64,000 nt of DNA from Escherichia coli. Lineage in GTDB: Bacteria; Pseudomonadota; Gammaproteobacteria; Enterobacterales; Enterobacteriaceae. The position numbers and the translations under genes were made by a program. The notes beneath the pieces were generated by a model. It saw nothing but the letters and a program-made list of their open reading frames with translations, did not search any database and was not told where the DNA came from. Location of the stretch: the NCBI RefSeq assembly GCF_003018255.1, contig NZ_CP027440.1, one strand, 5' to 3'. This document shows, piece by piece, positions 3,029-54,070 of the stretch; the first letter of the stretch is position 1; each line of letters opens with the position of its first letter.

Positions 3029-4433
<1,405 letters not shown>

Positions 4434-4435
<2 letters not shown>

Positions 4436-4470
4436 ACCGGATAAGAGGCGCCAGCATCGCATCCGGCAAT
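4434..4470. repeat. REP (repetitive extragenic palindrome) element at the xseA 3' end / left island junction
   Basis: gtagaccggataagaggcgccagcatcgcatccggca has the CCGGATAAG...GCATCCGGC imperfect-palindrome signature. The same signature recurs at 35457, 42656 and 53939. Confidence 0.8.
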
Positions 4471-4503
4471 AGCTCCCAGGCTACACCAGATCCGCCATGC
4501 TGG

Positions 4504-7500
4504 TTACTGGAAGCAGGTCACCAGACCCGGTTTATTTTTTATTAGCGTGATACTACAATCCTGCGCTCCAGTACCTTCGTCCATCCCACACTGTTGAGAG
4601 GACAAATAAGGAAAACTGGGTGAAGACGGCCATCCCAGTGAATTAAAAACAGTATGCAACAACTCTAATTCATTGTATGTCGGTGCATTTTCTATGCTGC
4701 CACACTGCCTTGCGATATCCCATTTACTGGCATCAATGATATGTGCAGAAGCCCAGTTTTCGTAGTTAATAATCGGTGAGGATACGGGATTAGCCCCGGA
4801 CGGCAATTCCGTCGTTAACAACGGTCGATGTAGCGATTTACTAGTCACCACTACCGTGTCTGCCATATGTCCCCAAAAGTGCGCCGATGAAACATTTGGG
4901 CTGGTTGGCACCGTAAAAATAGCATCCAGCGTGTCTGTCGCGGAAGCGTAATTAGCCAGAGTAACCGTCAGTGGCATTTTATAACCAGGGGTATTATCCT
5001 GGCGGAGCGTAAAACTTGCCGTCCCATCCGCGCCTGTCATGCCACTAATGGTATTACCGCTTTCACTCAGCGTAACAGCCGAACCTGATAACGGCTGAAC
5101 GACGAGATCGTCCATCGCCACTACATTGCCATACAACGTTGCCCCAGCGTTACGCGGCGATGCCTCACCACGTTTCAAAGTAAATTCAACATTCGGCACC
5201 GTATTCCCGGCGCTGTCTTTCACCGTCACGGTTACGGACATGGCTTCGCCTTTTTTCACTTTCGCCGCCTGAGTGGCTGCATCAAACGCTGTTGAGGTAA
5301 GTGTGACGCTGGAAACGGTTGAACGCGCGTTAGCCAGGCAAGGCTGAAATGATTTTGTTGAACCCGTATACAGCGTGCCATTTCTCAAATCAACCGACTG
5401 GTCTTTACCATCGGCGGATTTATCCTCTGCCCACCAGGTGTAATACGCAGGCCAGCCAGTTTCAGTGACAAACGTGTTATTCGGATAACGCGCAGACAAC
5501 GAACTTAAATCATTGAATAGTGGCTGCCTTGCTACTTCACAAGGGCTCACACTCGCATCTGATTTCTGTGTTGGGGTAAAGTACGGCCAGTCTTCATTAT
5601 TGTTATTGATCTTGCCGACGCCAGAAGTCGATGTCAGTTCACTCCACAATTTCGGGCGTTCAAATACCGCACCATTCACTGCCGTCAAGGTTGCTGGCAT
5701 ATGCCCCCAGTAGTTAGCCTTCGCAGAATCCGGGCTGGTCACTACCGTGAATATCAGGTCCTGATTAGCCGTAACCTGCGGATTTCGCGCCAATGAAGCT
5801 GTAAACGGCGTTACCAGACCGACGGTGTTATTTTGGGTAACGTTGAACGTTATCGTGCCATCACTGCCGGTGAAGCCGCTCCATGCCGACGTATTCTGGT
5901 TGAAGGAGATACGCGCCGATGTTGGGGTGACTTCATCTAAAATGAGATCATCTACGGTATTGGAGGATACAGAGATCCCTGAACGGCTTTTCGCCTGCAC
6001 GCGCTTGAGCGTAACACCTTCGCCGCCAACAGGATTACCATTGGCATCTTTGATCGTCACCACGATGGGAAGCATCTCACCTTTTTTCACAGATGACGTG
6101 GGGGTACCACCATTGCTGGCAGTTCGGCCCTCATCATAGGCAGTCGATGACAGCGTAAGGCTTGCTGGTGCCGAATGTGGCTGCGTCAGACAGAGCATTA
6201 AAGCGTATCCATTAATAGTCGTCGTCGATTGTCCCGTTTTCAAATTAATGACGCCGTAATACCACGTCAACGCGTCAGTGGTGCTCATTTCATAAGTCCA
6301 CCAATTTCCACTTCCGGCAGTTATAGGCAACCCCAAATCTGTCAGTATTGTCCCGCCTGGATGATCATTATATAGCCCCTGTAACTCATTGAGACGCGGC
6401 TGATACTCAACCGGGCAATCCGGCGTAACTTTATTGGTATAAAAAAGGTATGACCACGACTCATTATTATTACTTACCGAGGACCCCAAGGTCGCTTCTG
6501 CTGCCAGTAGCGGTCGTTTAAAGGTCACCCCCGCCCTACTGGTAAACGTGTCGGGCATATGACCCCAGTATTTTGCTTTCGGTGAGTTCGGACTGGTTAT
6601 CACAGTGAAAATAACATCCATCGTGGCACTTTTTGTGGTGTCGCGCATCAATGTTGCAGTGAGCGGAGTTGCCAGCCCATAAGTCTCGTTTTGCGTCACA
6701 TCAAAAGTCGCTTTACCATCACTTCCTGTCGTCAGAAGTGCCTGTGCCCCATTATTATAGAGTGACATGTTTACTCCGGCAGGGGTGACCGGCACGATAG
6801 TAAGATCATCATACGTAGAATCTAGCCTGTTTTTTGCACGATCCAACGCAGTCCCGCGTATGAGATTAAAGTTTGCGCCTGGCAACAGATTTCCTCCGCT
6901 ATCCCGCACAATCACCGTCATCCGGATCGCCGTACCTTTCGCCGCCGTTGCACTAGGGCGACCATCGTTGCTGGCCGTTTTCTCCGCATCCAGTGCCGTG
7001 GAGGTCATCTCTATAGAAGCTGCCACTGCATGAGGGTTTACCAGACAGGACACAAATGCCACGGTGTTTGATAATGCCCTGGAGCTTGATCCATTCGATA
7101 AATTAATAGACTGATCGTACCAGACGTTCGCGTAGGCAATTTTATCGTAAGCCCACCAGGTGTTAGTCAGCGGAAGGCCTAAATCGGTCCCTATCGCACC
7201 ATTAGGATGTTCACTGTATAACTCTTGAAATTCGCTTAATAACGGTTGATAAGGTTCGCCGCAGTCTGATTTGCTGACATCATTTTTTGCTGCCGTATTC
7301 AAAGAAAGCCATGATTCATTATTAGCCATGGTTGACTGCCCCGCTGGATGCTCGGCAGTAAGCAATGGCCGCTTAAAGGCAATTCCCGACCGGGTAGTAA
7401 ACGTTTCAGGCATATGCCCCCAGTAACTTGCCAGTGGCGTATCCGGGCTGGTTATGACGGTAAACATGACCGGTAATTTGTTGGATTCTATCGTCAGCTG

Positions 7501-10500
7501 ATACAACTGGGCGTACATATTGGTTACCAGGCCCATAGAATCATCTTGTTTTACCGTAAAGGAGGTAGTCCCGTCCGCGCCAGTCACCCCATAAAGCAGG
7601 CTTGAAGAACTATTCATCCTCGCAGAAGCGCCTGCCGCGTTAATTACCGTAATCGACTTATTTATCATCTCGGCATTTTGACGGTTCTTCGAGCCTTCAC
7701 GTCTGAGAATAAAGGGGACATTGGGCACGCTATTTCCCTGCGTATTTTTAGTCACCACGCGAATCACCGCGTCTTCGCCTTTTTTCACTTTCAACGCACT
7801 CAAGGTGTCGTCAACTTTGACAAATTGCGCCGTATCATTCGCCTCAACAATGATCTGACTGGCAACGGCGACAGGCGTGGTCCGGCAGCTCAGTAATGCA
7901 CCACCAGATGAGGGCATCTGCGTTTCATCTCCTGTCTTCAGCGAAACGACATCATACGTAAAGGTTTGAGTGAACGTATCTGCAACGGTATTCGAGATAT
8001 AGAACCTCGACACTGGCCAGCCAATAGCATCATGTAATGCGCTACTCCCCTGGTGCGCATAAATGGCCCTAAGTTCATTGTCAGTTGGAACATACTCCGC
8101 GCCACAACCATTTATCGAGGTATCGTTAGCCTGGCCCGACGGGAACGTAGACCAGGCCTCCCCCTCTTCCACCAGGGTACCGATACTGGTGGTAGCACTA
8201 TTCTCGTCCCTCAGCAAAGGCCTTCGATAAATAAGACCGTCATCGCCTGTCGCCGTTTCAGCCATATGCCCCCAGAATTTGGCTTTTGGCGAATCCGGGC
8301 TGGTAAGCACCGTAAAGACAACGGGAAGCGTCGATTTAGTGCTGCTGGAGGAATCCAACGCTGCCGTGAGTTCTGTTTTTAGCCCGGTAGTCTGGTCTTG
8401 CTTCAATGTGAAAGTGGTGATGCCATCAGCCCCCGTCACGCCATAAATAACCAGGGTCGTTGAAAGAAAATCATCTTGAGTATTTCCCCAGGCATCCGTT
8501 ACCGCCAGCGAAGCAATCGACGTCGTAGTTGACACATTGGCCCTGTTCACGCTGGTGTTTCGTTTGAGGGTAAATGCGGTATTTCCCACAGGGTTACCCT
8601 GCGCATCTTTAGTGGTCACTCGTAATACGGCTTCTTCGCCTTTTTTCGCTTTGACAACATTATTCGTACTGTCAAATTTTGTGGGGTCTGCAGCTTCAAG
8701 AACAATTTGGCTTGCCTTAACAATCGGCGTCGTCTGGCAGGTAAGCAGTTCTTTTGTGGCAGATGGAATTATCGAACTGGTGCCTGAACTGAGATTGACG
8801 GCCTTGAAGTCACGCTGTTCCAGGCTACTACTACCTGTTGTGCTGGAAAGGTAACTTGAGGCGACGGGCCAGCCCTGAACCGTTTTCATCGCATTGCCGC
8901 GGTTGGCTTCATACAATGACTCCAGCCCGGCCTGGGAGGGAACATATTCACTACCACAACCATTAGAGGCTGTGCTTATAGCCTGGGTTTGGGTAAATTG
9001 CGCCCAGTCTTCATTCTCTTCTGCAATCGCTGTTCGACCCGACGTACTGGATAACTCTTTCAACAATAATGGGCGTTTAAAGACCGTTCCATCTGCAGCC
9101 GTCACTGTTTCAGGCATATGCCCCCACATTTTCGCCTTATCGCTGTCCGGGCTGGTGACAACGGTAAAAATGGTATCGAGGGTCGCTTTTTTCGTTGTGT
9201 CTGAATAGAGCGCGACGGTCAGCGACGTTTTTGTGCCATGGGTATCCGGGCGGGTAATAGTGAGAATTTTAGTGCCATCGCTGCCGGTCATCGCGCTGTA
9301 TGCTGCGGCGGTATCATTGAGCGAAGTTTCATCCGCCAGGCCACTATTGATCACAACCGGCGCAACCAGCGCATCACCGCCACCGGCAATGTGTTTTTCG
9401 TTTGATCGGGTATAACCATCGCCACGCTTCAGCGTAAAAGGCATATCACCCAATGGATTGCCCTGAGCATCTTTTACCGTCACCTTCACCTGTAGCGTTT
9501 CGCCTTTTTTCAGCTTCGCCGCATTTGCTGCCGCGTTCCACTGCGCCGGGTCCACCACTTCCAGCGTAATGCTGCTGGCAGGATTGTTAGCCGTCGTCAG
9601 GCAACTGACATAAACCGCCGTGCTACCGCCAACGGTCCGCGCGCCATCGTTGAGGGCTATGGTGTAGTAATGCGGCACCTGATCCGCGGGCGAACTGCTC
9701 CAGTAGGGCTGACGCTGCGTTGGCCAACCGTGTACCGTTTGAACGGCGTTACCGCTGTTAGCATCATAGAGCGCGTTAAGCTGGGAACGGCGTGGGAGCA
9801 TATTGGCACCACAGCCACCTTTACTGGTGCTGGAAGTGTTGGCCTGGCTAACGCGCGACCACACTTCGTTATTTTCCGTTAATGTGCCGTCCGGGCTGGA
9901 CACTTCCGCAGCCAGCCGGGGTCGGGCAAAGGTTAATGCATCGACGGTAATCGTCTCATCCATATGACCCCACATCTGCGCGCCAACCGCATCCGGACTG
10001 GTGAGCGTAGTGAAAATCACATTGTAATTAACAGTATTGGGAATATAGGAGTTTACAGGCGCAATATTCAGCGGCGTCGCTAAGCCCACACCTTGCGGTT
10101 GCTTAATTTCCACAGTAGCAAAACCCTGCGCATCCGTAGTACCGGCATAGACTAAAGACGGTTGCGATGTTCCGTAGAGTGTGCCATTCATCTCGATTGC
10201 GCCGCGGGTTGGATCATCAAAACCTGTAGTCTGCCCCTGACGATTTTTCCCCATATCTTTAGTGATGGTGAACGCGGTATACGGCACGGGCGCATTATTC
10301 AAGGCATTAAAGGTGCGTACCGTCATGGTAATCGTTTCACCCTCTTTAGCCTGCGCTCTGCTGCTTGTGGAAACATCATGATCGGTGGTCGCAGCAATCT
10401 GGGCGACCATCTCATTGCCCGAACAAGAAAGGTAGTTTTGCTTAAAGCCGGAATAGGTGTCGATGTTGCCCGTGGCCAGGTTCACCGACGCGTGCGACGT

Positions 10501-12558
10501 CTCTTCCACCGCACTAAGATACGCTTTTTGCAACGTTGGCCAGCCATATTCGGTGCCGATGACATTGGCTGGATGTGCGGCAAACAAACTGTGCAATGAG
10601 CTTTGGCTCGGAATATGACCTAAACCACACTCAGCCTGCATACTGCTATTCTGATCAAACAGCGCCCAGTCTTCGTTATTTTCCCGCACTGCTCCCAGTT
10701 CGTTGTCGGTTTCATCCGCCAGCCGTGGGCGTTTAAAGATATTATTCGCTTCAATAATGCCTAACATATGTCCCCACATCCGCGCTTTGTCGGAATCAGG
10801 GCTGGTGATCACCGTAAAAATAACGTCTTTCTCATCCGAGGCGGTAAAATCACTGCGCATTTTCGCGGTGATGTGTGTTTTCACCCCCACGCCGCCTGGC
10901 TGGGTCAGCGTCAGAGAGGCCTCTCCGTTAGCATCAGTGATCCCTTCATAGGTATGCGCGTCAACTTTGCGAACGTTACTGCCACCATCAATTTGTACCG
11001 GATGCGTCTCCCACGCAGCGTCAGTTTGATTCTTACGGTTAACACCGTCATCCAGATGCAGCGAAAAGTAGTAGTAAGCCAGCGGCTGATCGTTGTTCTT
11101 GCTATCGGTAATCGTCAGGCGTAAAGAAGCCTCTTCCCCCACCTTTACTTTCATCGCTTTTATCGTCGAATCATAACTGCCCGGCGTCAGTACCAGCTTC
11201 GGTTCAACATCGGGCGCTTCTTTATCGACACAGCTCACAATAAACGTCGTATCGTCCGGTTTTTGCGCTTCGCTGCGGTTCGAAACATCCGCCGCATGGT
11301 GCTGCCCGCTCATCCCCGCCAGTGATGACCAGTAGTAGTTACCCTGCATCGGCCAACCAGCCACATCCTGCACTGACGTTGGCACCACCGTCGCCAGCGC
11401 ACCGAACTGACGCATTCCGGGCAAAATGTCGCAATGTTTATCCGCACCACTCCAGGTAAAGGTGGACCAGGTTTCATTGTGATCGTTAACCGTACCGTCT
11501 TCATTATCGACTTCCGCCGCCAGTTTTGGTCGACTAAAAGTGTAATCACGGGCCTTCAGCGTATCGGGCATATGACCCCACATTGTGGCCTGCGGGACAT
11601 CCGGGCTGGTGAGGACGGTAAAGATCACTGCCGTTTCACTGGTCTGAGCAATACCCGCGAGGCTCGCGACCAACGGCGTTTTTACACCAGGGGCGTTGGC
11701 CTGGGTGACCGTAACCGTGGCAACACCATTCGCATCGGTAGTACCACGATATTCCGTCGCGGTGGTGGTTAATTCGGTCGTGCCCAGTTTTACCGGCGCA
11801 GTATTGTTCACTACACCCTGGCGGTTTTCAGCATCTTTGCGTTTGATAACAAAAGGAATATTCCCCACAACATTACCGACGCAATCTTTGGTGGTGACCG
11901 TTAACGTGATACTGCCGCCAACCGTCGTTTTCGCCGCACCGGAGGATTCGTCATAGCCCGCGGCGCTGACGGAAATAAGGTCACCCTGCGCGGGCGCAAT
12001 CTTCAGCGTCACTTTCTGATCGGCGAGGGTCAGAACACTTTCATAGGGATAGCCCGTCGAGGTAAGTAGATATAACAGCGGCATGGTCTGCTGGGGGTCT
12101 GGCTGCGCCCAGGCGATCAGCGAACGCCCGGCAAGGCCCTGTGCGCAAAATGAGCGATCTGCGACTGGCTGTGGGTCCAGTAAGGTGTCCGGCGTCGCGG
12201 CATCCGCCCAAACTAAAGATACTGTCGGTGGCGTTTGGTTTTCCCAACGTGGTGTGGCAATGATATCGCCTTCTCTGTCTTGCGGGTTGGTGACGAGCAA
12301 TTTAGAGACGCTAACATCCGCGCTGAATTCACTCGGTTTAGCGGTAAACGCTACCTCATGCGTCTTTGCAGGATCCAGAAAGACACTGCCCTGGTAGACG
12401 GGTATGCTGGCACTGTCGGCGGTGGGCACGGTACCGTTAAATTCGCCGACCGTATCTGAAGAGTCTTGCCATGCAGATTCTGCCCATGCCCCCCCAGGCA
12501 GCATTGCGCTTATCAGCAATGCGCAAAACACAAGGATTTTATTCAGGGTCAGGGACAT
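4504..12558 (-). CDS. ratA: giant secreted repetitive Ig-like protein, RatA family (2684 aa)
   Basis: Uninterrupted 8055-nt ORF with GGAG 8 nt upstream of the ATG. The N-terminal Sec signal is [26 protein letters not shown]|ES. It contains nine reiterated modules, each holding a Big_1/invasin-like segment (KKGE..L.V.V.KDA.GNP...FTLKR...G.TG.DG...). It lies downstream of sinH-sinI between xseA and yfgJ, as in the Salmonella CS54 island. Confidence 0.85.
4507..12006 (-). repeat. nine tandem divergent coding modules (~804-858 bp each) inside ratA
   Basis: The protein motif (I/V/M)FT(V/T)xTSP(D/N)...(M/F/Y)WGHM recurs nine times. Its WGHM codons appear on the + strand as CATATGNCCCCA at 11569, 10765, 9961, 9115, 8263, 7411, 6556, 5698 and 4864. 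The spacings are 804, 804, 846, 852, 852, 855, 858 and 834 bp. Apart from this motif the copies differ substantially at nucleotide level. Confidence 0.9.
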
Positions 12559-12602
12559 GACAGAAACTCCACCGGTTGTTAAACGGACGCTTGTCGCATC
12601 AA

Positions 12603-12637
12603 CATATTTTGCTTAATCCGGGATTAAGCAAAATATG
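12603..12637 (-). promoter_or_regulatory. 35-bp perfect palindrome (17-nt arms, 1-nt centre) in the sinI-ratA spacer
   Basis: catattttgcttaatcc-g-ggattaagcaaaatatg. It lies 45 nt upstream of the ratA ATG and downstream of the hairpin at 12644-12667. It could be an RNA stem-loop (processing or stability) or a dimeric-protein operator. Confidence 0.5.
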
Positions 12638-12643
12638 CGGAAA

Positions 12644-12667
12644 CAGCATTCCCTTGCGGGAATGCTG
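12644..12667 (-). terminator. terminator-like hairpin just after sinI (possible attenuator before ratA)
   Basis: cagcattccc-ttgc-gggaatgctg is a perfect 10-bp stem with a 4-nt loop, 12 nt after the sinI stop. On the coding strand only TTTCC follows, so termination is likely partial at most. Confidence 0.4.
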
Positions 12668-12678
12668 CTGAGTACGCG

Positions 12679-13656
12679 TTATTTGTGTTTGTAAATAATG
12701 TGAAGTTTGTACCCCTGTACCCCGTCGCCGTTGGTCGGGATGGTAAGAGCTTCTTTACCATCGCGCGCAGGGCCGTTAAGGTTGGTTCTGGCGTCTTCGT
12801 TGGTCGCAGGGATGACCAGATTGTTATTATCGAAGCTTGAGTTGACGATACCACCCGAGGTGCCGAGCTGTTGGCTGCTGCCAGAAAGTACCCAACGGAA
12901 GTCATAATTGGCGGTAACGTCAGCATCGGTATCCGCATCAAACTTGCCATTTTTGTTCTCATCCGAGTACAGTTTGGCCACGTAGGTTTTGCCAAGTTCG
13001 ATTGGCGTACTGCCGTTGATAAGGTTGATACTGGTACCATCAACAAAGATGGCGACTTTCAGGTTCTGGTTAACTACCGGCCCTGGCGCAACGTTGTCGC
13101 TGTCGCTTCCGCCGCCGCTGGCAGTGGAAATGTCATAAAGATGCAGCGCAGTCCCGACGTTTGGCGTACCGGTCTGCGTGGTCGGCGTAATTTCAATACC
13201 GATATAACGACCACGGTCGTCATCGGTAAGAGTGTAACTGGTCACCTTCGTTGCCAGCTCTTTCGGATCGCCCCCCTGAGCGTCCTTGTAGCTCATCCAG
13301 CGGATAGTATCGATAGTCTTTGCGTTATCGCCCAATCCCCCAAGATCCACGTCGCCTTCGGTATCACCAATTTCCCAACTTACGGTTAATTTATCACCCG
13401 AGTAAAGACGCTTGTCCGTTTCACTGCCTGTCGGGCGAGCGCCTTTTAGATCAGAAGTCAACGTTACATGGTCGGCATCTGTCGTAGCGCTTCCCCCTTC
13501 CGAATAGAGCCACGGAATGGTTCCCTGGAAAATATTGGTTTCGCCGCTGTCGACCCAGGCGCTTTCTTCCGCCAGCGCCACAGGTGCCACACAATAACCT
13601 GCCAGTGCCAGCGCCAATGCGATCCGGGTCAGACCGCGTCTTTTATCCTGCTTCAT
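12679..13656 (-). CDS. sinI: secreted SinI-family protein (325 aa)
   Basis: ORF with the SD AAGGAGAG upstream and the Sec signal MKQDKRRGLTRIALALALAGYCVAPVALA|EE. It sits between sinH and ratA. Its C-terminal ~130 aa are paralogous to the SinH C-terminus, and its mature N-terminus resembles that of RatA. Confidence 0.85.
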   Translation of the reverse strand: MKQDKRRGLTRIALALALAGYCVAPVALAEESAWVDSGETNIFQGTIPWLYSEGGSATTDADHVTLTSDLKGARPTGSETDKRLYSGDKLTVSWEIGDTEGDVDLGGLGDNAKTIDTIRWMSYKDAQGGDPKELATKVTSYTLTDDDRGRYIGIEITPTTQTGTPNVGTALHLYDISTASGGGSDSDNVAPGPVVNQNLKVAIFVDGTSINLINGSTPIELGKTYVAKLYSDENKNGKFDADTDADVTANYDFRWVLSGSSQQLGTSGGIVNSSFDNNNLVIPATNEDARTNLNGPARDGKEALTIPTNGDGVQGYKLHIIYKHK

Positions 13657-13710
13657 TGATGCTCTCCTTAATGAACCTTCAGCGACTGGCCGACTGGCCT
13701 TACGCCAATC

Positions 13711-15888
13711 TTATTTTTTGGTATACAGCACGCGTAAACCGTATCCCTGCAAGCCATCTCCCGCTTGTGCGCCATAGGTTTGCGCTGCTTCGCGGTTAGT
13801 GGCCGGAATCACAATGTCCTCATTGGAAGAGTTCGCCTGTGCACCCACTTCACCATTGATGCTCTTGCCGGTAAATTCCCACTTGTAGTCGTACTGCGCC
13901 ATCTCTTCGTCAGTCAGTTTTTCGACCTGCTGGAAGACACCGTCTTTATTGCTGTCACGCCACAAAACAAATCGATAAGTGTTGTTGAGCGGCAGCGGTT
14001 CTTTATCTTTACCTATCAGGTTGCTGGGTTTAGCTGCCCCCACACGATAGATAAATGCATTTAGCCCACCAATTTCTGCCCCGAGGAAAGTGACATCCAC
14101 ATAGTTACTGTCGTCGTAGGGCGCAGCTTTTGCTTTCCAGCGATAGGTGCCGGGTAAGGTACTGGAGAGGGTGACAGTGCCCTTTTCTTTATCTTGTTTA
14201 GCGATAAAAACGCAGGGGTTGTCGGTCGAGCAAGGCTTGTTGGTTAACGTCACTCGTTTGTCCTGCGCGTCGTAAAGCCGCGGCGTGAGGTTATCTTCCG
14301 GCAGCGCATCGCCATTGCGGTCGGTGTTATCGCCAAAGCTGTCGGTTACATCGAGATCCATCACCACACCATCAACGCCATCTGCCTGGGCGCTGGCTTC
14401 GTGGCTGTGGTTGTTCTCTTCCGGCACGTTCGCGATGTTATTAACAATCAACTCAATTTTACGGTCCTGCTGAACGGTGATTTCCACCACACCAGAGTTC
14501 TGTCGGTTGCCCTTTTCATCTTCCAGTGCCAGACGTACTCGCCAGGTATTGAGTTTTTCTTGTTCGGCTTTGTCAGAGCTGTACTGCCAGGCGGGCAGCA
14601 CCAGGTTCCAGTGGTTATTGTTACCCTCTGTCAGGGTATTCTCTTTGATAACCGGCATAACCAGCGTGCGGGCAGCATTGTTTTTCGCCTGCCATGACGC
14701 AGCGACAATTTTGTAGTGGTGGTTGATAAGCGCGTTAATGGTCCACTTACATTTTTCCAGCCCGACCGCCGCTTCAGGCGTATCTTTAATGACACACTCG
14801 GGGTGTTCGTTGGTGGCATCCGCTTTTAACCACAGGGTGACATCAAGCGGATCTTTTTCTTTGTATTCCAGAACAATAAAGTTATTACGCTCAACAAAAT
14901 CATGACGACTGCCCATCAACGAGTGAGCCGCTTTCACTTTATCGCTATCCAATTGATCTTTTAGCGGAACGCCGAACTGATAATTAAGAGTGGCATTAAT
15001 GCTGACATCGCTGTTATCTCCGGTCCCCGCTTTATAGTCCGCCCCAACGGTTAGTAATGGCACCGGTTGATAATTCAGTCCAAGTGTTACCGCGTAGGGA
15101 TCTTTCTCCAAATTATCCGTACCAAAAAGGGCAACTTCATCGCCGTAATATTGCTCGAAGACAACTTTGCCCCCCAGTTGCGGATAAGAAGGTAACCAGG
15201 CTTCGGCGCGAATATCCCAGCCGCGCGCAGGACGCTCCTCATAAAAATCGAAATCTTCGGAGTCTTTCCAGTCAGAAAGCGGATGATAATAGTTGCCAGA
15301 GAATTTTAAATAATCAGTCCACGCTTCGCCGCCTAAACCTAAACGGCGATGTCCTCGGGTAAAATCATAATCATAAAATATATTCCCGCCCAATAACCAT
15401 TCATTAAAATTATGTCTTACCCCAAGACCAATATTCCCGATTGTACGATCTTCTTTTCGCTGCGCAGAAAATTGACTGAAATAAACAGTGGTTTGATTAT
15501 CGTACCAGGGAACAAAATAATCGATGGAACTGCCATCCAGATCGCCGCCCTGGCCAATGGAGAGGTTCGAACGGACCTTACCGTAGGGAGAGAGAGTGTC
15601 TTCAATATAAGATTGTGCGGTTGAGGTGATTTGACTTTGCAGATAGCTTCTGGCCTGAGATTCCAGCGCCTCAGGGGTCAAGTTTTCAAACCCTTGCGTG
15701 GCGGAGTTGATGATGTAATCGGCTCCGCGCTCTTTCAGCGATTTACCCTTGTTGGTTTGTTCATCCTGCTGTGCTGCCTGGCTACCTAAATCAGGTAACG
15801 ATTCGTTTTGCTTAACATTTATCTCTGGTGCCGCGAAAGCAGCACCAGAGATAAATGTTAGAATAATACAGCGTTTCCATCGCAGCAT
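13711..15888 (-). CDS. sinH: intimin/invasin-like inverse autotransporter outer-membrane adhesin SinH (725 aa from ATG 15888)
   Basis: The ORF-track entry begins at 15918, but that codon is TTG. The ATG at 15886-15888 has AGGGAAAG upstream and yields the signal peptide MLRWKRCIILTFISGAAFA|AP. Diagnostic inverse-autotransporter beta-domain motifs are present: GWDIRAEAWLPSYPQLGGKVVFEQYYGDEVALFG and MGSRHDFVERNNFIVLEYKEKD. Compare intimin GYDIRAEAYLP...EQYYGD and LGSRYDLVQRNNNIILEY. Confidence 0.88.
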   Translation of the reverse strand: MLRWKRCIILTFISGAAFAAPEINVKQNESLPDLGSQAAQQDEQTNKGKSLKERGADYIINSATQGFENLTPEALESQARSYLQSQITSTAQSYIEDTLSPYGKVRSNLSIGQGGDLDGSSIDYFVPWYDNQTTVYFSQFSAQRKEDRTIGNIGLGVRHNFNEWLLGGNIFYDYDFTRGHRRLGLGGEAWTDYLKFSGNYYHPLSDWKDSEDFDFYEERPARGWDIRAEAWLPSYPQLGGKVVFEQYYGDEVALFGTDNLEKDPYAVTLGLNYQPVPLLTVGADYKAGTGDNSDVSINATLNYQFGVPLKDQLDSDKVKAAHSLMGSRHDFVERNNFIVLEYKEKDPLDVTLWLKADATNEHPECVIKDTPEAAVGLEKCKWTINALINHHYKIVAASWQAKNNAARTLVMPVIKENTLTEGNNNHWNLVLPAWQYSSDKAEQEKLNTWRVRLALEDEKGNRQNSGVVEITVQQDRKIELIVNNIANVPEENNHSHEASAQADGVDGVVMDLDVTDSFGDNTDRNGDALPEDNLTPRLYDAQDKRVTLTNKPCSTDNPCVFIAKQDKEKGTVTLSSTLPGTYRWKAKAAPYDDSNYVDVTFLGAEIGGLNAFIYRVGAAKPSNLIGKDKEPLPLNNTYRFVLWRDSNKDGVFQQVEKLTDEEMAQYDYKWEFTGKSINGEVGAQANSSNEDIVIPATNREAAQTYGAQAGDGLQGYGLRVLYTKK
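14854..15636 (-). other. SinH inverse-autotransporter beta-barrel plus linker region (approx. ORF residues 95-355)
   Basis: The region spans SQITSTAQSYIED... to ...FIVLEYKEKD and carries the intimin/invasin beta-domain motifs listed for sinH. Boundaries were estimated by eye. Confidence 0.6.
15813..15860. repeat. 19-bp perfect inverted repeat with 10-nt spacer inside the sinH signal-peptide codons
   Basis: taacatttatctctggtgc (15813-15831), spacer cgcgaaagca, then gcaccagagataaatgtta (15842-15860). It begins 28 nt downstream of the ATG at 15888 and encodes LTFISGAAFAAPEINV. Confidence 0.9.
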
Positions 15889-15918
15889 GCACTTTCCCTG
15901 TGACAATGATACAGTCAA

Positions 15919-16097
15919 AAATAAGCTTTAATATTGTATCCCTGATTATTCAGAAAGGCATGTCATAAAGAATAAATATACTCTTAATTATTTAAATTAG
16001 TGATTTCACTCAATTACATTAGTTATTCCACTAATAACAGATTGTTTTACCATTCACATATTAAATATAAATGATAAAACAATATATTCACATGATA
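15919..16097 (-). promoter_or_regulatory. AT-rich ~180-bp region upstream of sinH (presumed operon promoter / right island junction)
   Basis: This non-coding stretch between the yfgJ stop and sinH is visibly much more AT-rich than its flanks, with runs such as aataaatata, ttaaatataaatgataaaac and tatttaaattag. One sigma70-like pair on the - strand is TTCTGA-N16-TATTAA. No GATC sites and no simple-sequence tract were seen. Confidence 0.35.
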
Positions 16098-16313
16098 TTA
16101 AGCAATAACAAATTCAACGCGTTTTTTAGATATTAAACCGTGCCCATGTTGGCAGAAATAATCCACAACACCACAAGCTTTTAACACTTGTAACGGCTGA
16201 TGACACTCAGGGCAAAGTGCCTGGACGGTAAAGTCTTTGTCGCAAGTTGCACAGTGGGCAGTCTCGCCATTGCGTTCGAGAGGGATTTTGCAGGTTGGAC
16301 AGTTGAGTGCCAT
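16098..16313 (-). CDS. yfgJ: small double zinc-ribbon protein YfgJ (71 aa)
   Basis: The ORF has cysteine pairs CPTC, CATC and CPEC plus C..H.H. Its C-terminal half QPLQVLKACG.VDYFCQHGHGLISKKRVEF matches my recollection of YfgJ. SD GAGGAG lies upstream. Confidence 0.85.
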   Translation of the reverse strand: MALNCPTCKIPLERNGETAHCATCDKDFTVQALCPECHQPLQVLKACGVVDYFCQHGHGLISKKRVEFVIA

Positions 16314-16375
16314 AAATACTCCTCACGTGTTATTCGGTTTCCCTCTCCGTGTGGAAAGGGAAACCAGATAAGTGA

Positions 16376-17848
16376 TTACTTACTTTTCTTGATATGCTTC
16401 ATCAGGCGCTTACGTTTACGCATCTGGGTTGGCGTCAGGGTGTTACGCTTGTTCGCATACGGGTTTTCCCCTTCTTTGAACTGAATACGAATCGGCGATC
16501 CCATTACGTCCAGCGATTTGCGGAAGTAGTTCATCAAGTAACGCTTGTAGGAATCAGGCAGGTCTTTCACCTGGTTACCGTGAATCACCACAATCGGCGG
16601 GTTATAACCACCAGCGTGGGCATATTTCAGCTTCACACGACGACCGCGTACCAACGGCGGTTGGTGATCTTCAACAGCCATCGTCATGATGCGCGTCAGC
16701 ATAGAGGTCCCCACACGACGGGTGGAGCTGTCATACGCTTCACGTACTGATTCAAACAGATTACCAACACCACTGCCGTGCAAGGCTGAGATAAAATGCA
16801 CACGAGCAAAATCGATAAAGCCCAGACGGAAGTCCAGCGTTTCTTTCACCTGCTCTTTCACTTCCTGGCTCAGGCCATCCCACTTATTCACTACAATGAC
16901 AAGTGAGCGCCCACTATTGAGAATAAAGCCCAGCAACGAGAGATCCTGATCGGAAATACCTTCGCGGGCGTCAATCACCAACATCACCACGTTGGCATCT
17001 TCAATGGCCTGCAACGTTTTGATTACCGAGAATTTCTCTACAGCATCGGTGATTTTGCCGCGTTTACGTACGCCAGCGGTGTCAATGAGCACATACTCAC
17101 GTCCGTCGCGTTCCATTGGAATGTAGATGCTGTCACGCGTCGTGCCAGGCATGTCGTAAACAACAACGCGCTCTTCACCAAGAATACGGTTCGTGAGTGT
17201 AGACTTACCTACGTTCGGACGACCCACAATCGCCAGTTTGATCGGCAGACTTTGCGGGTCGAAGTCATCTTCCTCTTCTTCTTCGCCGTTTTCTTCTGCT
17301 TCAAATTGCGCCCAGTATTCAGCGTCTTCATCCACTTCTTCTTGTGGTGCGAGATCTTCCATCCACGGCAGCAGCACGTGCTCCAGCAGACTTAATACGC
17401 CACGACCGTGAGACGCGGCGATCGGGTAGATTTCCCCTAAACCAAGCGAGTAAAAATCAACTACCGCCTGATCAGGATCCAGCCCGTCAGTTTTGTTTGC
17501 CACCAGGAAGGTTGGCTTTTCGCGGGAGCGCAGATGTTTAGCAATAGCTTCATCCGCAGGCATCAGACCCGCGCGCGCATCGACCATAAACAGCACAACG
17601 TCCGCTTCTTCAATCGCCAGCAGCGACTGTTCCGCCATACGTGTCTCTACACCGTCTTCGGTGCCATCAATCCCGCCAGTATCAATACAAATAAACTCGC
17701 GGCCTTCAATTTCTGCACGACCGTATTTACGGTCACGAGTCAGACCTGGGAAATCCGCAACCAGCGCATCTCGTGTGCGAGTTAGACGGTTAAATAACGT
17801 GGATTTTCCTACGTTAGGGCGCCCGACAAGCGCGACCACAGGTACCAT
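16376..17848 (-). CDS. der: ribosome-associated GTPase Der/EngA (490 aa)
   Basis: ORF-track frame trimmed to the ATG 17846-17848 ([22 protein letters not shown]). There are two tandem GTPase domains, each with GRPNVGKST and a DT(A/G)G motif, and a KH-like C-terminus. Confidence 0.96.
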
Positions 17849-22322: not shown

Positions 22323-23330
22323 TTACTGCGCCGGTGGTTGTTCGGCATTGAGGGTCAGACGCGCAACCTGGTTAGTTCTGATAAAACGACTCAGATCGAC
22401 AGGTTTCCCTTGATACTGGATCTGTACTGCGGCTGGCGCACCAATTTTCAGTTTGTACGGTGCCTGGCCGGTTAAGTTCAAATTACCGTCTTTACGCTGC
22501 ATACCGCTAAACAGTTTTTTACCGGTAGCATCGGTGACTTCCAGCCAGCAATCGGCAGTAAAGTTCATCACCAGCGCATTCGGGTCAACCGCCGGCGTGG
22601 TCACGCCAGCCTGATCGGTTGGCAACGGCGCAGCGCCATCTGGTGTTGTTGTTGCCGCTGGTGCCGGAGTCGCAGCGGTATCAACATTTGCCTGCGAAGG
22701 TGGAACAACCGCATTCTGTTGCGGATCAACAGCTGGTGCTGGCGCAGTTACGGCAGGTGTTTGCGTGTTGGTTGCGGTGGTATCCACAGGTGATGTCGGC
22801 GTGGTCGCCATAGCCTGATCTGTGGTTGTCGACGTATCTAACGGTACACTCTGGCTTTGATTATTATTCAGTTCCGCAGAAGATTGATCGGCCATAGTGG
22901 TGATCTCTTCCTGCTGAGCTTTGTGGTCTTGCCACCACCAGGCACCGCTCAGGCCAATAACCACAAACAATACCAGCCAGGTGAAGGTCATCAGCCAGCC
23001 GTCACGTTTTTTGCGGCGTTTACCGAGGGAAAAACTCTGCATCGGCGCAACTTTTGCAGCCCGTAGTGGAGCCTGCTTTTCCAGCCCTGGCAGCAGTTCT
23101 TCTTCTGGAATATGTACCAGACGCGCATAAGAGCGGATATATCCGCGCAGGAATGTTGAAGCAAGATCGGCGGGTGCCTTATCTTCTTCAATGTCGCGTA
23201 CCGTGGAAACCTTCAGGCAAAGTCGCTCGGCAACGGCCTGTTGACTAAGTCCTAGTTGTTCGCGAGCATTACGCAGGCGAGCGCCGGTAGTAAGTGCTTC
23301 ATTTTGGTCGTGCGTGGCTTCAGTATTCAT
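22323..23330 (-). CDS. rodZ: cytoskeleton protein RodZ (335 aa)
   Basis: It has an N-terminal HTH ([23 protein letters not shown]), a single TM segment and a Thr/Pro/Ala-rich periplasmic linker. It lies upstream of ispG. Confidence 0.95.
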
Positions 23331-36822: not shown

Positions 36823-36843
36823 TTTAGTTATCCTTATTCGTTT

Positions 36844-36877
36844 AACAGCAAAACGGGCTACCCCCAGGCAGCCCGTT
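36844..36877 (-). terminator. rho-independent terminator at the end of the isc operon (after iscX)
   Basis: On the - strand: aacgggctgcctgggggtagcccgtt followed by TTGCTGTT. Confidence 0.7.
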
Positions 36878-36880
36878 CAT

Positions 36881-37081
36881 TCACTCGGCTTCGTCCAGCC
36901 AGACCAACAAAATCGCTTCGAGGATTTTCTCGTTCGATGCCTGCGGGTCGTCGTCGAAATCTTCCAGATCGCAAATCCACTGATGCATATCGGTGAATCG
37001 AACCGTTTTCGGATCAAGATCGGGATACGCATCGTACAGTGCTTCGCCAATTTCGCGGCTATCGGTCCACTTAAGTCCCAT
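36881..37081 (-). CDS. iscX: Fe-S assembly accessory protein IscX (66 aa)
   Basis: Starts [46 protein letters not shown]. It is the last gene of the isc cluster. Confidence 0.95.
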
Positions 37082-42609: not shown

Positions 42610-42655
42610 TTAACCTTCAGTGCCATTTTTTTATCGTGGCGTTTGTACCTGTTGT

Positions 42656-42737
42656 CGGATGCGACGTGAACGCCTTATCCGCCCAGGGGCTCTGTGCACT
42701 GCAGGCCTGATAAGACGCGTTAAGCGTCGCATCAGGC
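42656..42737. repeat. REP/BIME pair between the iscR promoter and trmJ
   Basis: cggatgcgacgtgaacgccttatccg (42656-42681) and gcctgataagacgcgttaagcgtcgcatcaggc (42705-42737). Confidence 0.8.
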
Positions 42738-42745
42738 AACCACTA

Positions 42746-53938: not shown

Positions 53939-54070
53939 GCCGGATGCGGCGTGAACGCCTTATCCTGCCTACCGTTCCAACACCAATTGTAGGCCTGATA
54001 AGACGCGGCAAGCGTCGCATCAGGCATCGTGCGCCGAGTGCCGGATGCGGTGTGAACGCCTTATCCGGCA
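53939..54070. repeat. BIME with three REP units between yphA and yphB
   Basis: gccggatgcggcgtgaacgccttatcc (53939-), gtaggcctgataagacgcggcaagcgtcgcatcaggc (53989-) and gccggatgcggtgtgaacgccttatccggc (54040-). Confidence 0.85.

Follow-up and report, generated by a model that had tools for sequence, protein, structure and literature searches.

The sinH-sinI-ratA (ila) locus of Escherichia coli: an apparently old occupant of the xseA-yfgJ slot with a candidate partner module and two candidate RNA structures

The region between xseA and yfgJ in a 64,000-nucleotide stretch of an Escherichia coli genome (contig NZ_CP027440.1; hereafter, the window) is, in our assessment with good confidence, the ila cluster of E. 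coli (sinH-sinI-ratA), a homologue of the sinH-proximal part of the Salmonella CS54 island, and we propose for it a scheme of translocation, expression control and evolution as an old locus. The locus itself is already known, under the names ExPEC ila cluster and iatB in E. coli and, in Salmonella, as the distal portion of CS54, and one more E. coli genome carrying it adds nothing new. However, an N-terminal module shared by SinI, RatA and Salmonella RatB may have gone unreported so far, and the same may be true of a tandem hairpin in the sinI-ratA spacer and a hairpin over the signal-peptide codons of sinH. The genes and junctions are as follows:

3059-4435, plus strand: xseA, the left flanking core gene (Pfam Exonuc_VII_L, E 1.9e-113)
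4432-4467, minus strand: REP element at the left junction (exact REP-type pattern match, 0 expected by chance)
4504-12558, minus strand: ratA-like gene, 2684 aa (ORF listing)
12679-13656, minus strand: sinI, 325 aa (ORF listing)
13711-15888, minus strand: sinH (iatB), 725 aa, with the ATG start at 15888
15889-16097, minus strand: AT-rich region upstream of sinH at the right junction, 209 bp, 24.9% GC
16098-16313, minus strand: yfgJ, the right flanking gene, encoding a zinc-ribbon protein

The ORF listing of the window places three minus-strand genes, ratA-like, sinI and sinH, in the xseA-yfgJ gap, separated by spacers of 120 bp (ratA/sinI, 12559-12678) and 54 bp (sinI/sinH, 13657-13710) and each preceded by a purine-rich ribosome site (AGGGAA, AAGGAG and GGTGGAG), as stated in a preliminary description made from the sequence alone. 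Its comparison with K-12 is borne out as well: outside the island, positions 461-61889 are collinear with K-12 at 95-98% identity, and the K-12 xseA and yfgJ genes, given there as nearly adjoining, overlap by 4 bp with nothing between them. Coding sequence of the three genes fills 96% of the 11,662-bp island, leaving no space for mobility genes. Consistent with the description, neither an integrase nor an IS was found in the island, which holds only these three genes between xseA and yfgJ; no tRNA was detected in positions 1-22000 of the window, and the search for a flanking direct repeat at the island borders was empty. The REP element assigned to the left junction overlaps the xseA stop codon and sits between the convergent xseA and ratA; it was missed by our first REP pattern and recovered as an exact match with a second pattern variant. 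An Rfam E-value scan of 4300-16500 yielded two sub-threshold matches only, a weak match of the REP-derived naRNA4 model to this element (E 0.32) and a hit, judged spurious, of a miRNA model to the sinH hairpin discussed below. The AT-rich right spacer, put at about 180 bp in the description, measures 179 bp if the TTG start of sinH is used and 209 bp from the ATG. The ATG, rather than the TTG of the longer ORF (13711-15918), is the actual start: the match to the NCBIfam SinH profile begins only at residue 11 of that longer ORF, and a 2178-nt sinH is annotated by RefSeq in a 99.5%-identical genome.

In the CS54 island of Salmonella enterica, reportedly described by Kingsley and colleagues in 2003 as shdA-ratB-ratA-sinI-sinH, the homologous genes occupy the same slot, by yfgJ-der, and follow the same order, sinH-sinI-rat (in Salmonella, directly viewed on the yfgJ side). 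Homology and common position thus uphold the proposed match to the sinH-sinI-ratA end of CS54, which also shares the sinI-ratA spacer hairpins and the N-terminal module in SinI, RatA and RatB. By contrast, CS54 carries shdA and ratB, both lacking from the E. coli island, where only three genes are present, as the description had noted; a single rat gene (2684 aa, nine repeats) stands against RatA (1865 aa) plus RatB (2435 aa) in Salmonella, and the hairpin in the 5' coding part of sinH, present in the E. coli island, is missing in Salmonella. The E. coli ila cluster/iatB locus has the same genes, order, orientation, slot and size (11,408-11,685 bp in BEN2908), and only the allele differs in this window. 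According to the passages of PMC12928451 and PMC12525524 that cite Shea et al. 2022, the sinH-sinI-ratA trio between xseA and yfgJ has been published as the ExPEC ila cluster, to which the sinH island of uropathogenic E. coli mentioned in the description corresponds.

The locus is accessory in E. coli, as initially suggested: sinH occurs in about a third of complete genomes (1740/5426) and is missing from K-12, where the site is empty. The whole island is found at ≥99% identity in 11/5426 genomes, and ST131-type islands are ~80% identical. Between yfgJ and xseA, the trio is also encountered across Escherichia (five species), Salmonella, Citrobacter, Pseudocitrobacter, Kluyvera, Superficieibacter and further Enterobacteriaceae, amounting to at least seven genera and including all Escherichia species sampled. 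The first 200 bp of the flanks are only 67% (xseA end) and 66.5% identical to K-12, but 97-100% identical to another island-bearing E. coli, and the yfgJ allele is island-linked, its product sharing 65% aa identity with K-12 YfgJ, which is the outlier. The occupation of one slot in at least seven genera, together with the divergence of the K-12 flanks and yfgJ, indicates that the polymorphism is old. The claim that the genes were inserted here is therefore not supported: alignment of the junctions with K-12 confirmed the empty site but argued against a fresh insertion (flanks ~67% identical). Judging from these comparisons, the K-12 state is better read as a loss or allelic replacement, and the pattern suggests that haplotypes with and without the trio have long existed and are exchanged via flanking homology. 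Instead of vertical descent, repeated transfer by way of conserved flanks could also account for the common slot.

We regard as highly improbable that a classical genomic island was recently acquired and inserted between xseA and yfgJ in the lineage of the window. Such a history would fit the absence of the island from K-12 and ~68% of E. coli genomes, its GC content slightly below that of the remainder of the window (50.7% versus 53.0%) and the term 'pathogenicity island' in the title of Shea et al. 2022, as that title is cited in PMC9937491. However, tRNA, integrase, IS and direct repeat are all missing; in the windowed composition check proposed in the preliminary description, the GC content fell at the low end of 11.7-kb windows (50.5-54.0%) and GC3 was similar to that of the flanking genes; the same genes occur in the same slot of the at least seven genera, and the diverged flanks belong to the empty allele. 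Among the hallmarks of classical genomic and pathogenicity islands, variable presence among strains is observed, whereas a tRNA, an integrase or IS, direct repeats and deviant composition are not. Rather, the trio would be an old Enterobacteriaceae locus that is lost or swapped whole by homologous recombination in the flanking core genes, a mode of exchange for which mobility genes are not needed. The ST131 island is closer to that of Pseudocitrobacter vendiensis (84.8% over 12.9 kb) than to that of the window (~80%); a recent transfer between ST131 and Pseudocitrobacter was rejected, given that the 84.8% is comparable to the identity of the flanking der region (81.6%).

All three products score above the curated NCBI family cut-offs, in support of the initial SinH/SinI/RatA-like identifications; the two outcomes that the preliminary description had set against its own reading, the trio in K-12-like genomes and a lack of similarity to the Salmonella proteins, were not observed. 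The domains and modules considered below are:

12409-12480, minus strand: N-terminal module of RatA (residues 27-50), adjoining the predicted signal peptide on its C-terminal side
13510-13569, minus strand: SinI N-terminal module, residues 30-49, EESAWVDSGETNIFQGTIPW (BLASTP, profile-profile and genome comparison)
~13723-14034, minus strand: SinH C-terminal SinI-like domain
~14881-15702, minus strand: SinH beta-barrel (Pfam IAT_beta)

SinH matches NCBIfam NF033423 over its full length (1486 bits, cut-off 999) and is 72.6% identical to Salmonella SinH and 89-96% identical to the ST131 and UPEC alleles. A signal peptide, MLRWKRCIILTFISGAAFA/APE as read from the sequence, precedes the IAT beta-barrel domain (Pfam IAT_beta PF11924, E 1.8e-108). 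As far as domain content goes, SinH is thereby shown to be an intimin-like inverse autotransporter (type Ve), in which the signal peptide is joined by an IAT beta-barrel of the 12-strand type and a passenger that is Ig-like. It is the IatB of PMC6714894, in which the C-terminal passenger of the SMS-3-5 protein was located on the cell surface by immunofluorescence and IatB formed biofilm without its downstream gene. Since published work on SinH documents its display at the surface, a role in biofilms, phenotypes in mouse UTI and its use as a vaccine antigen (PMC9937491), the statement that the molecular function of the trio is essentially unknown was overstated for this protein.

Directly downstream of sinH, sinI encodes a protein with a Sec signal peptide and no barrel, which belongs to the SinI family of autotransporter-associated proteins (NF040711; 333 bits, cut-off 165) and is 44.7% identical to Salmonella SinI. 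Residues 208-325 match the SinH profile, making the second domain of SinI homologous to the SinH C-terminal domain, whereas residues 69-210 match the ZirU family NF040485 (E 1e-7), albeit below the family cut-off (32 bits versus 100). The AlphaFold2 model of SinI (pLDDT 70; residues 1-61 below 50) contains two beta-sandwich domains, for which Foldseek against the PDB returned generic Ig/FnIII folds only (E > 0.01); sequence profile searches found no solved relative of SinI.

The third protein aligns from residue 1 to 2684 with positions 1-2683 of the RatA-like family NF011844 (5883 bits, cut-off 3870) but does not reach the cut-offs of the Salmonella equivalogs RatA (NF011843, 2011 versus 3700) and RatB (NF011842, 2204 versus 4079). 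The name ratA given in the preliminary description therefore holds at the level of the RatA-like family and not at that of the Salmonella RatA equivalog; the N-terminal half of the protein is, in fact, nearer to RatB (48.8%) than to RatA (42.4%). A Sec signal peptide, the N-terminal module and a poorly modelled N-region (AlphaFold2 with a shallow alignment gave pLDDT 55 for residues 1-330, which is not usable) are followed by nine tandem units of 268-286 aa, each consisting of a BIg21 and an InvE adhesion domain (Pfam BIg21 x9, InvE_AD x9; WGHM spacing), and there is no barrel. At the DNA level, the repeat has a period of 804-858 nt in 9 copies. With one repeat as a query, PDB 5N40, a 'putative invasin', was matched with E 3.6e-24, and each repeat aligns to the distal Ig and adhesion domains of this structure, a tip of the Invasin E / intimin-invasin family, including the TSPD...WGxM motif and a Cys pair. 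Unlike such tips, RatA strings together nine of these units, and no barrel is attached to them.

The arrangement resembles Salmonella ZirTSU, in which an IAT barrel gene is likewise followed by genes for barrel-less, Sec-signal-bearing Ig-like proteins that have a domain in common with the passenger of the transporter, but zirTSU lacks a RatA-like giant partner. Dependence of ZirS secretion on ZirT has been shown experimentally (PMC2270342), and SinH as a translocator for its partners is a hypothesis of PMC4943183. In the match between SinI and the ZirU profile, residues 69-210 of SinI align from position 18 of the profile onwards, leaving the N-terminal module without a ZirU counterpart. This module, of ~25 residues with the consensus (LKxG)xWQ-x4-[ST]T-x2-[IF]-[QN]GTxP, immediately follows the signal peptide of SinI, of RatA and of Salmonella RatB. 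The RatA and SinI N-termini are linked by profile-profile comparison (probability 94.6%, E 6.7e-8, 25 columns) and by BLASTP (11/19 identities). Furthermore, module variants switch together in SinI and RatA in 26/26 genomes examined, and a single evolutionary event may lie behind the two variants. A search of RatA residues 1-210 against 1.84 billion cluster representatives gave 44 matches with no sign of the module in other protein types; all matches lie near their own N-termini, the longer ones being Rat-like in length (judged by length only) and many being short fragments. Separate transporter and Sec-dependent passengers with a conserved N-proximal element are also features of two-partner secretion (TpsA/TpsB), by analogy with which the module may serve in recognition. 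However, the barrel here is of the IAT rather than the Omp85/POTRA type, the module spans ~25 residues compared to ~250 in the TPS domain, and it is devoid of the NPNL/NPNGI motifs of the latter.

We propose that SinH, SinI and RatA would all cross the inner membrane via Sec, that SinH would be inserted by BAM and its passenger displayed, and that SinI and RatA would then depend on SinH for translocation across the outer membrane and/or anchoring at the surface, in the way that ZirS and ZirU depend on ZirT, with the N-terminal module marking the partners for SinH. The cell would thereby come to bear a long, multivalent adhesin on its surface. It is tentatively conceivable that the module is a dedicated SinH-type targeting or docking element, a minimal counterpart of the TPS domain, and that two uncatalogued cis-acting RNA structures, described below, set the amounts of barrel and passengers. 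No SinH column separating the two module variants was found under strict or relaxed criteria, nor by eye in the C-terminal domain, and there is thus no co-evolution signal linking the module to SinH. This result would also suit a self-sufficient SinH adhesin, with SinI and RatA remaining periplasmic or being exported by another route and the linkage of the genes reflecting co-regulation only. IatB alone is, after all, displayed on the surface and mediates biofilm formation (PMC6714894), and the pore of inverse-autotransporter barrels has been argued to be occupied by its own linker (PMC4943183). We nevertheless consider this unlikely: the three genes stay together from genus to genus, the C-terminal domain of SinH recurs in SinI, the module is common to SinI, RatA and RatB, the N-termini of which are otherwise unrelated, and ZirT-dependent secretion of ZirS has been demonstrated (PMC2270342).

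A chain could also be envisaged in which the module acts as a donor strand or hairpin docking into the C-domains of SinH and SinI, yielding a SinH (anchor)-SinI (adaptor)-RatA (fibre) assembly. An acceptor-type domain is present in two of the proteins (SinH-C and SinI-C) and a donor-type module in two or three (SinI-N, RatA-N and RatB-N), and Prehna and colleagues are said to have found in 2012 that ZirS and ZirU bind the ZirT passenger, which would favour such docking. The module also lies outside any confidently folded domain in the monomer models; AlphaFold2 left it unmodelled in both SinI and RatA, a result that is uninformative rather than supportive. Given that the chain is purely inferential, that SinH-C residues do not partition by module type and that an outer-membrane route would still be required, we find it quite doubtful and retain translocation or anchoring by SinH as the preferred reading.

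The candidate RNA structures are located as follows:

12603-12667, minus strand: tandem hairpins in the sinI-ratA spacer, fold z = -5.17
12644-12667, minus strand: spacer hairpin 1, GC-rich and followed by UUU(U)CC
12603-12637, minus strand: spacer hairpin 2, a perfect 17-bp stem with the invariant core UUUGCUUA...UAAGCAAA
15813-15860, minus strand: hairpin within the sinH coding sequence, 22 bp with a 4-nt loop, codons 10-25, fold z = -7.55

For the spacer element, RNAalifold predicted 28 pairs across 18 loci from at least eight genera, 13 of them with compensatory changes, and 97% of cells are paired compared to 38-48% in slid controls (0/500 shuffles). The element, for which no Rfam family was found, is 98.8% identical in BEN2908 and NU14, and the core of hairpin 2 occurs in one copy per locus. 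Hairpin 1 has a conserved GC-rich stem of 10-12 bp but only 3-4 U behind it and was not called by a terminator consensus scan; as an intrinsic terminator it would be a weak one, given the 3-4 U. The sinH hairpin spans the h/c region of the signal peptide (ISGAAFAAPEI); Escherichia, Pseudocitrobacter and some Citrobacter have it at the same place, but it was not found in Salmonella and several other genera. Here, 85.9% of cells are paired versus 34-50% in slid controls, and 9 pairs show double changes compared to 3.6±1.3 in shuffles (0/500).

In our scheme, an AT-rich, LeuO-responsive promoter would drive transcription from upstream of sinH, a region that is the presumed promoter and silencing target and for which a link to H-NS is an inference. 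Control after transcription would fall to the stable hairpin within the initial 75 nt of the sinH frame, and the ratio of RatA to SinHI would be determined by the conserved terminator-like hairpin and its neighbour in the sinI-ratA spacer. LeuO raises the iatB transcript while the protein is not detectable (PMC6714894), which fits a post-transcriptional block. The hairpins might instead be palindromes maintained by mutation, through quasi-palindrome template switching, or protein-binding DNA sites, with no function as RNA. In the CP52E allele, the two arms of the sinH hairpin have symmetric deletions of 3 nt, a change of the sort that arises by template switching, and the core sequence of spacer hairpin 2 does not vary, as would be expected of a binding site. 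We give this possibility little credence, however, in view of the 13 compensatory pairs and 97% pairing of the spacer element across at least eight genera and of the palindromic amino-acid sequence that the sinH hairpin imposes, as well as of the retention of this hairpin, with different sequences, in Pseudocitrobacter.

The locus has medical relevance, as SinH is a surface protein associated with ExPEC and is being studied as a vaccine antigen, and if the locus is, as it appears, an old haplotype polymorphism at a fixed core slot, this affects the use of the 'island' as a lineage marker. For the question, raised in PMC4943183, of how an inverse autotransporter's barrel-less partners are recognized, the module offers a short, mutable element to test. 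Finally, the two conserved RNA structures are concrete candidates for the cause of the published discrepancy between the levels of iatB transcript and protein.

The 11,662-bp island at window positions 4436-16097, located between xseA and yfgJ, is an already described accessory cluster. It corresponds to the intimin-like adhesin ('ila') cluster known from ExPEC and listed as the genomic region xseA..yfgJ in BEN2908 (PMC12928451). Its SinH is IatB, a cell-surface protein which promotes biofilm, responds to LeuO and was detected in 35% of 126 genomes and 37 of the 39 phylogroup B2 strains; LeuO raises the iatB transcript without detectable protein (PMC6714894). Phylogroups B2, D, F and G are enriched for SinH, which has been tried as a vaccine antigen (PMC9937491), and sinI is co-transcribed with sinH (PMC12525524). 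A role of SinH in translocating SinI and Rat-like proteins has been proposed by analogy with ZirT and its partners ZirS and ZirU (PMC4943183; PMC2270342). The locus is thus already known from the ila and IatB descriptions.

The ORF listing comprises the following features, to which the REP element of the left junction is added:
3059-4435, plus strand, xseA
4432-4467, REP element overlapping the xseA stop codon
4504-12558, minus strand, ratA-like ORF
12679-13656, minus strand, sinI ORF
13711-15918, minus strand, sinH ORF (TTG version)
16098-16313, minus strand, yfgJ

sinH begins with the ATG at 15888; alignment to the SinH profile sets in at residue 11 of the TTG ORF, and sinH is 2178 nt long by RefSeq in a 99.5%-identical genome. 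The three genes account for 96% of the island, are separated by spacers of 120 and 54 bp and are each preceded by a purine-rich ribosome site. The K-12 xseA and yfgJ genes share a 4-bp overlap, and the remaining window is collinear with K-12. The arrangement outlined in the preliminary description is therefore borne out by the ORF listing and the K-12 comparison, as are its REP element at the left junction and its AT-rich right junction (24.9% GC in the 209 bp upstream of the sinH ATG). Also in agreement with it, a tRNA scan over 22 kb of the window found none, and a repeat search found no direct repeats flanking the island. The island differs little from its flanks in GC content (50.7%) and GC3.

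The identification of the locus as sinH-sinI-ratA with Salmonella relatives likewise proved correct. The 725-aa protein is a SinH equivalog (1486 bits, cut-off 999) with an IAT beta-barrel domain (E 1.8e-108), the 325-aa protein belongs to the SinI family (333 bits, cut-off 165) and the 2684-aa protein matches the NCBIfam 'RatA-like protein' end to end (5883 bits, cut-off 3870), while falling below the equivalog cut-offs of both Salmonella RatA and RatB. All three carry Sec-type signal peptides, as judged from sequence, and only SinH has a barrel. Profile and sequence comparison identified the C-domain of SinI as a copy of that of SinH. The RatA-like protein contains BIg21 and InvE adhesion domains, nine of each, and one repeat matches the distal Ig and adhesion domains of the 'putative invasin' 5N40 in the PDB (E 3.6e-24). 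A Salmonella contig has the order der-yfgJ-sinH-sinI-ratA-ratB, with identities to the window proteins of 72.6% for SinH, 44.7% for SinI and 42.4% for RatA; the N-terminal 1372 residues of RatB are 48.8% identical to the RatA-like protein. Rat-like genes range from ~1600 to ~3000 codons between species (comparison loci L005-L025), indicating a variable repeat number, and Salmonella has two rat genes.

Of 5426 complete E. coli genomes, 1740 carry sinH at a query coverage of at least 80% and 934 the whole island at the same coverage (megablast), with further genomes carrying ~80%-identical alleles. A SinI-profile scan of species-representative genomes yielded 22 loci. The slot yfgJ - sinH-sinI-ratA - xseA, with der and guaB beyond, is common to E. 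coli, E. ruysiae, E. whittamii and two further Escherichia species, E. albertii (on a contig covering the yfgJ side only), three Pseudocitrobacter species, four Citrobacter loci, Kluyvera, two Superficieibacter species and two further Enterobacteriaceae. Citrobacter, Kluyvera, one Superficieibacter and one further enterobacterium (L010, L011, L013, L014, L016, L021, L025) have an additional 2-5 kb in the der-yfgJ gap. Decayed copies were also seen, with a ratA frameshift near the 5' end in E. coli SCPM-O-B-8794 (L004 11478-12475) and Citrobacter murliniae (L014 11462-12452) and an internal stop in sinH of E. coli CP52E (L030 12001-14175).

Identity to K-12 was followed in 200-bp bins outward from both junctions. 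On the left, it is 67%, 88% and 91.5% in the first three bins and then 94-100% with scattered lower bins; on the right, 66.5%, 78.5% and 98%, and then mostly 96-100% with a few lower bins. Compared with another island-bearing E. coli, identity in the first bin is 100% on the left and 97% on the right. YfgJ of K-12 is 65% identical to that of the window, and those of the other sampled island-bearing Escherichia are 69-97% identical. With 84.8% identity, the island of Pseudocitrobacter vendiensis resembles the ST131 island more than the window island does (~80%), so allele lineages cut across species boundaries. The most economical interpretation is that the locus is old and has long existed as occupied and empty haplotypes, which would be lost or exchanged through recombination in the flanking core genes; this would also explain the absence of mobility genes. 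Given the same slot across genera and the diverged K-12 flanks, 'inserted', as the preliminary description put it, should give way to an ancestral locus that K-12-type haplotypes lack.

Several other differences were observed in the surroundings. The yfgJ gene (window 16098-16313; K-12, L003 45721-45936) is highly polymorphic; the N-terminal half of K-12 YfgJ is unlike every island-linked Escherichia allele, and the best match of K-12 YfgJ in the compared set is that of P. vendiensis (75%). Identity to K-12 dips to 85-94% at ~22500-22900, probably the rodZ-rlmN intergenic region by K-12 annotation, in a flank otherwise 97-100% identical. Small breaks or overlaps of the K-12 alignment at 36841-36885, 42653-42740 and 53939-54069 coincide with REP elements (copies at 42654, 53939 and 54040). 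Beyond ndk, E. coli CP52E carries a DMSO/selenate-reductase-family cluster (L030 23784-26175) at the position taken by pbpC-yfhM in the window, K-12 and ST131.

The mature N-termini of SinI (13510-13569, minus strand) and RatA (12409-12480, minus strand) share a module of ~25 residues directly after the signal peptide, with the consensus (LKxG)xWQ-x4-[ST]T-x2-[IF]-[QN]GTxP. The two copies show 11/19 identities by BLASTP and align over 25 columns in profile-profile comparison (probability 94.6%, E 6.7e-8); Salmonella RatB also has the module (L026, from ~16920). The ZirU-family match on SinI starts past it, so ZirU lacks it. One variant has EF before [QN]GT and no LKxG, the other LKxG and I before [QN]GT. 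In every case examined, SinI and RatA of one genome carry the matching variant, and the variants switch together, which may represent a single evolutionary event. No residue tracking the variant was found in the SinH alignment, and the AlphaFold2 models of both SinI and RatA have low confidence over the module. As far as the literature shows, the module is apparently new. The role inferred for it, taken as less likely than not, is to mark partners for SinH, for either translocation or docking.

Two RNA structures were predicted within the trio:
12603-12667, minus strand, two tandem hairpins in the sinI-ratA spacer (fold z = -5.17)
15813-15860, minus strand, 22-bp hairpin with a 4-nt loop, 95% complementary, in sinH signal-peptide codons 10-25 (fold z = -7.55)

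Across 18 spacer loci from at least eight genera, Salmonella included, RNAalifold predicted 28 pairs, 13 with compensatory changes. Cells were paired in 97% of cases versus 38-48% with slid partners, and 53 double-change cells compare with 2-6 in slid controls; none of 500 shuffles reached the observed values. In 21 loci, the hairpin 2 core, TTTGCTTA-N-TAAGCAAA, is present as a single copy, always within the sinI-ratA spacer; a few island-bearing loci have variant cores, and empty-site K-12 loci have none. The invariant core of the tandem element reads UUUGCUUA...UAAGCAAA. The element was seen in island-bearing genomes only, in 1684 of 5426 E. coli genomes, about the number with sinH, and has no Rfam match. 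Hairpin 1 is terminator-like, but with just 3-4 U after the stem. In Escherichia sp. E1V33 (L022 11334-11623), the spacer is 290 nt long, with a REP/BIME-like insertion within or beside hairpin 1, a second hairpin-arm copy and an intact hairpin 2.

Salmonella lacks the sinH hairpin, which is conserved, with differing sequences and compensatory changes, in Escherichia, Pseudocitrobacter and some Citrobacter. In one E. coli allele (L030), both arms have symmetric 3-nt codon deletions. Cells were paired in 85.9% of cases versus 34-50% with slid partners, and nine pairs have double changes versus 3.6 +/- 1.3 in shuffles. A rival explanation for the hairpin is a palindrome maintained by mutation alone. 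As a functional RNA structure, the hairpin could throttle translation or serve as an RNase III site, either of which would fit the LeuO-raised iatB transcript without detectable protein. The N-terminal module and both RNA structures merit modest experimental follow-up but leave the classification of the cluster unchanged.
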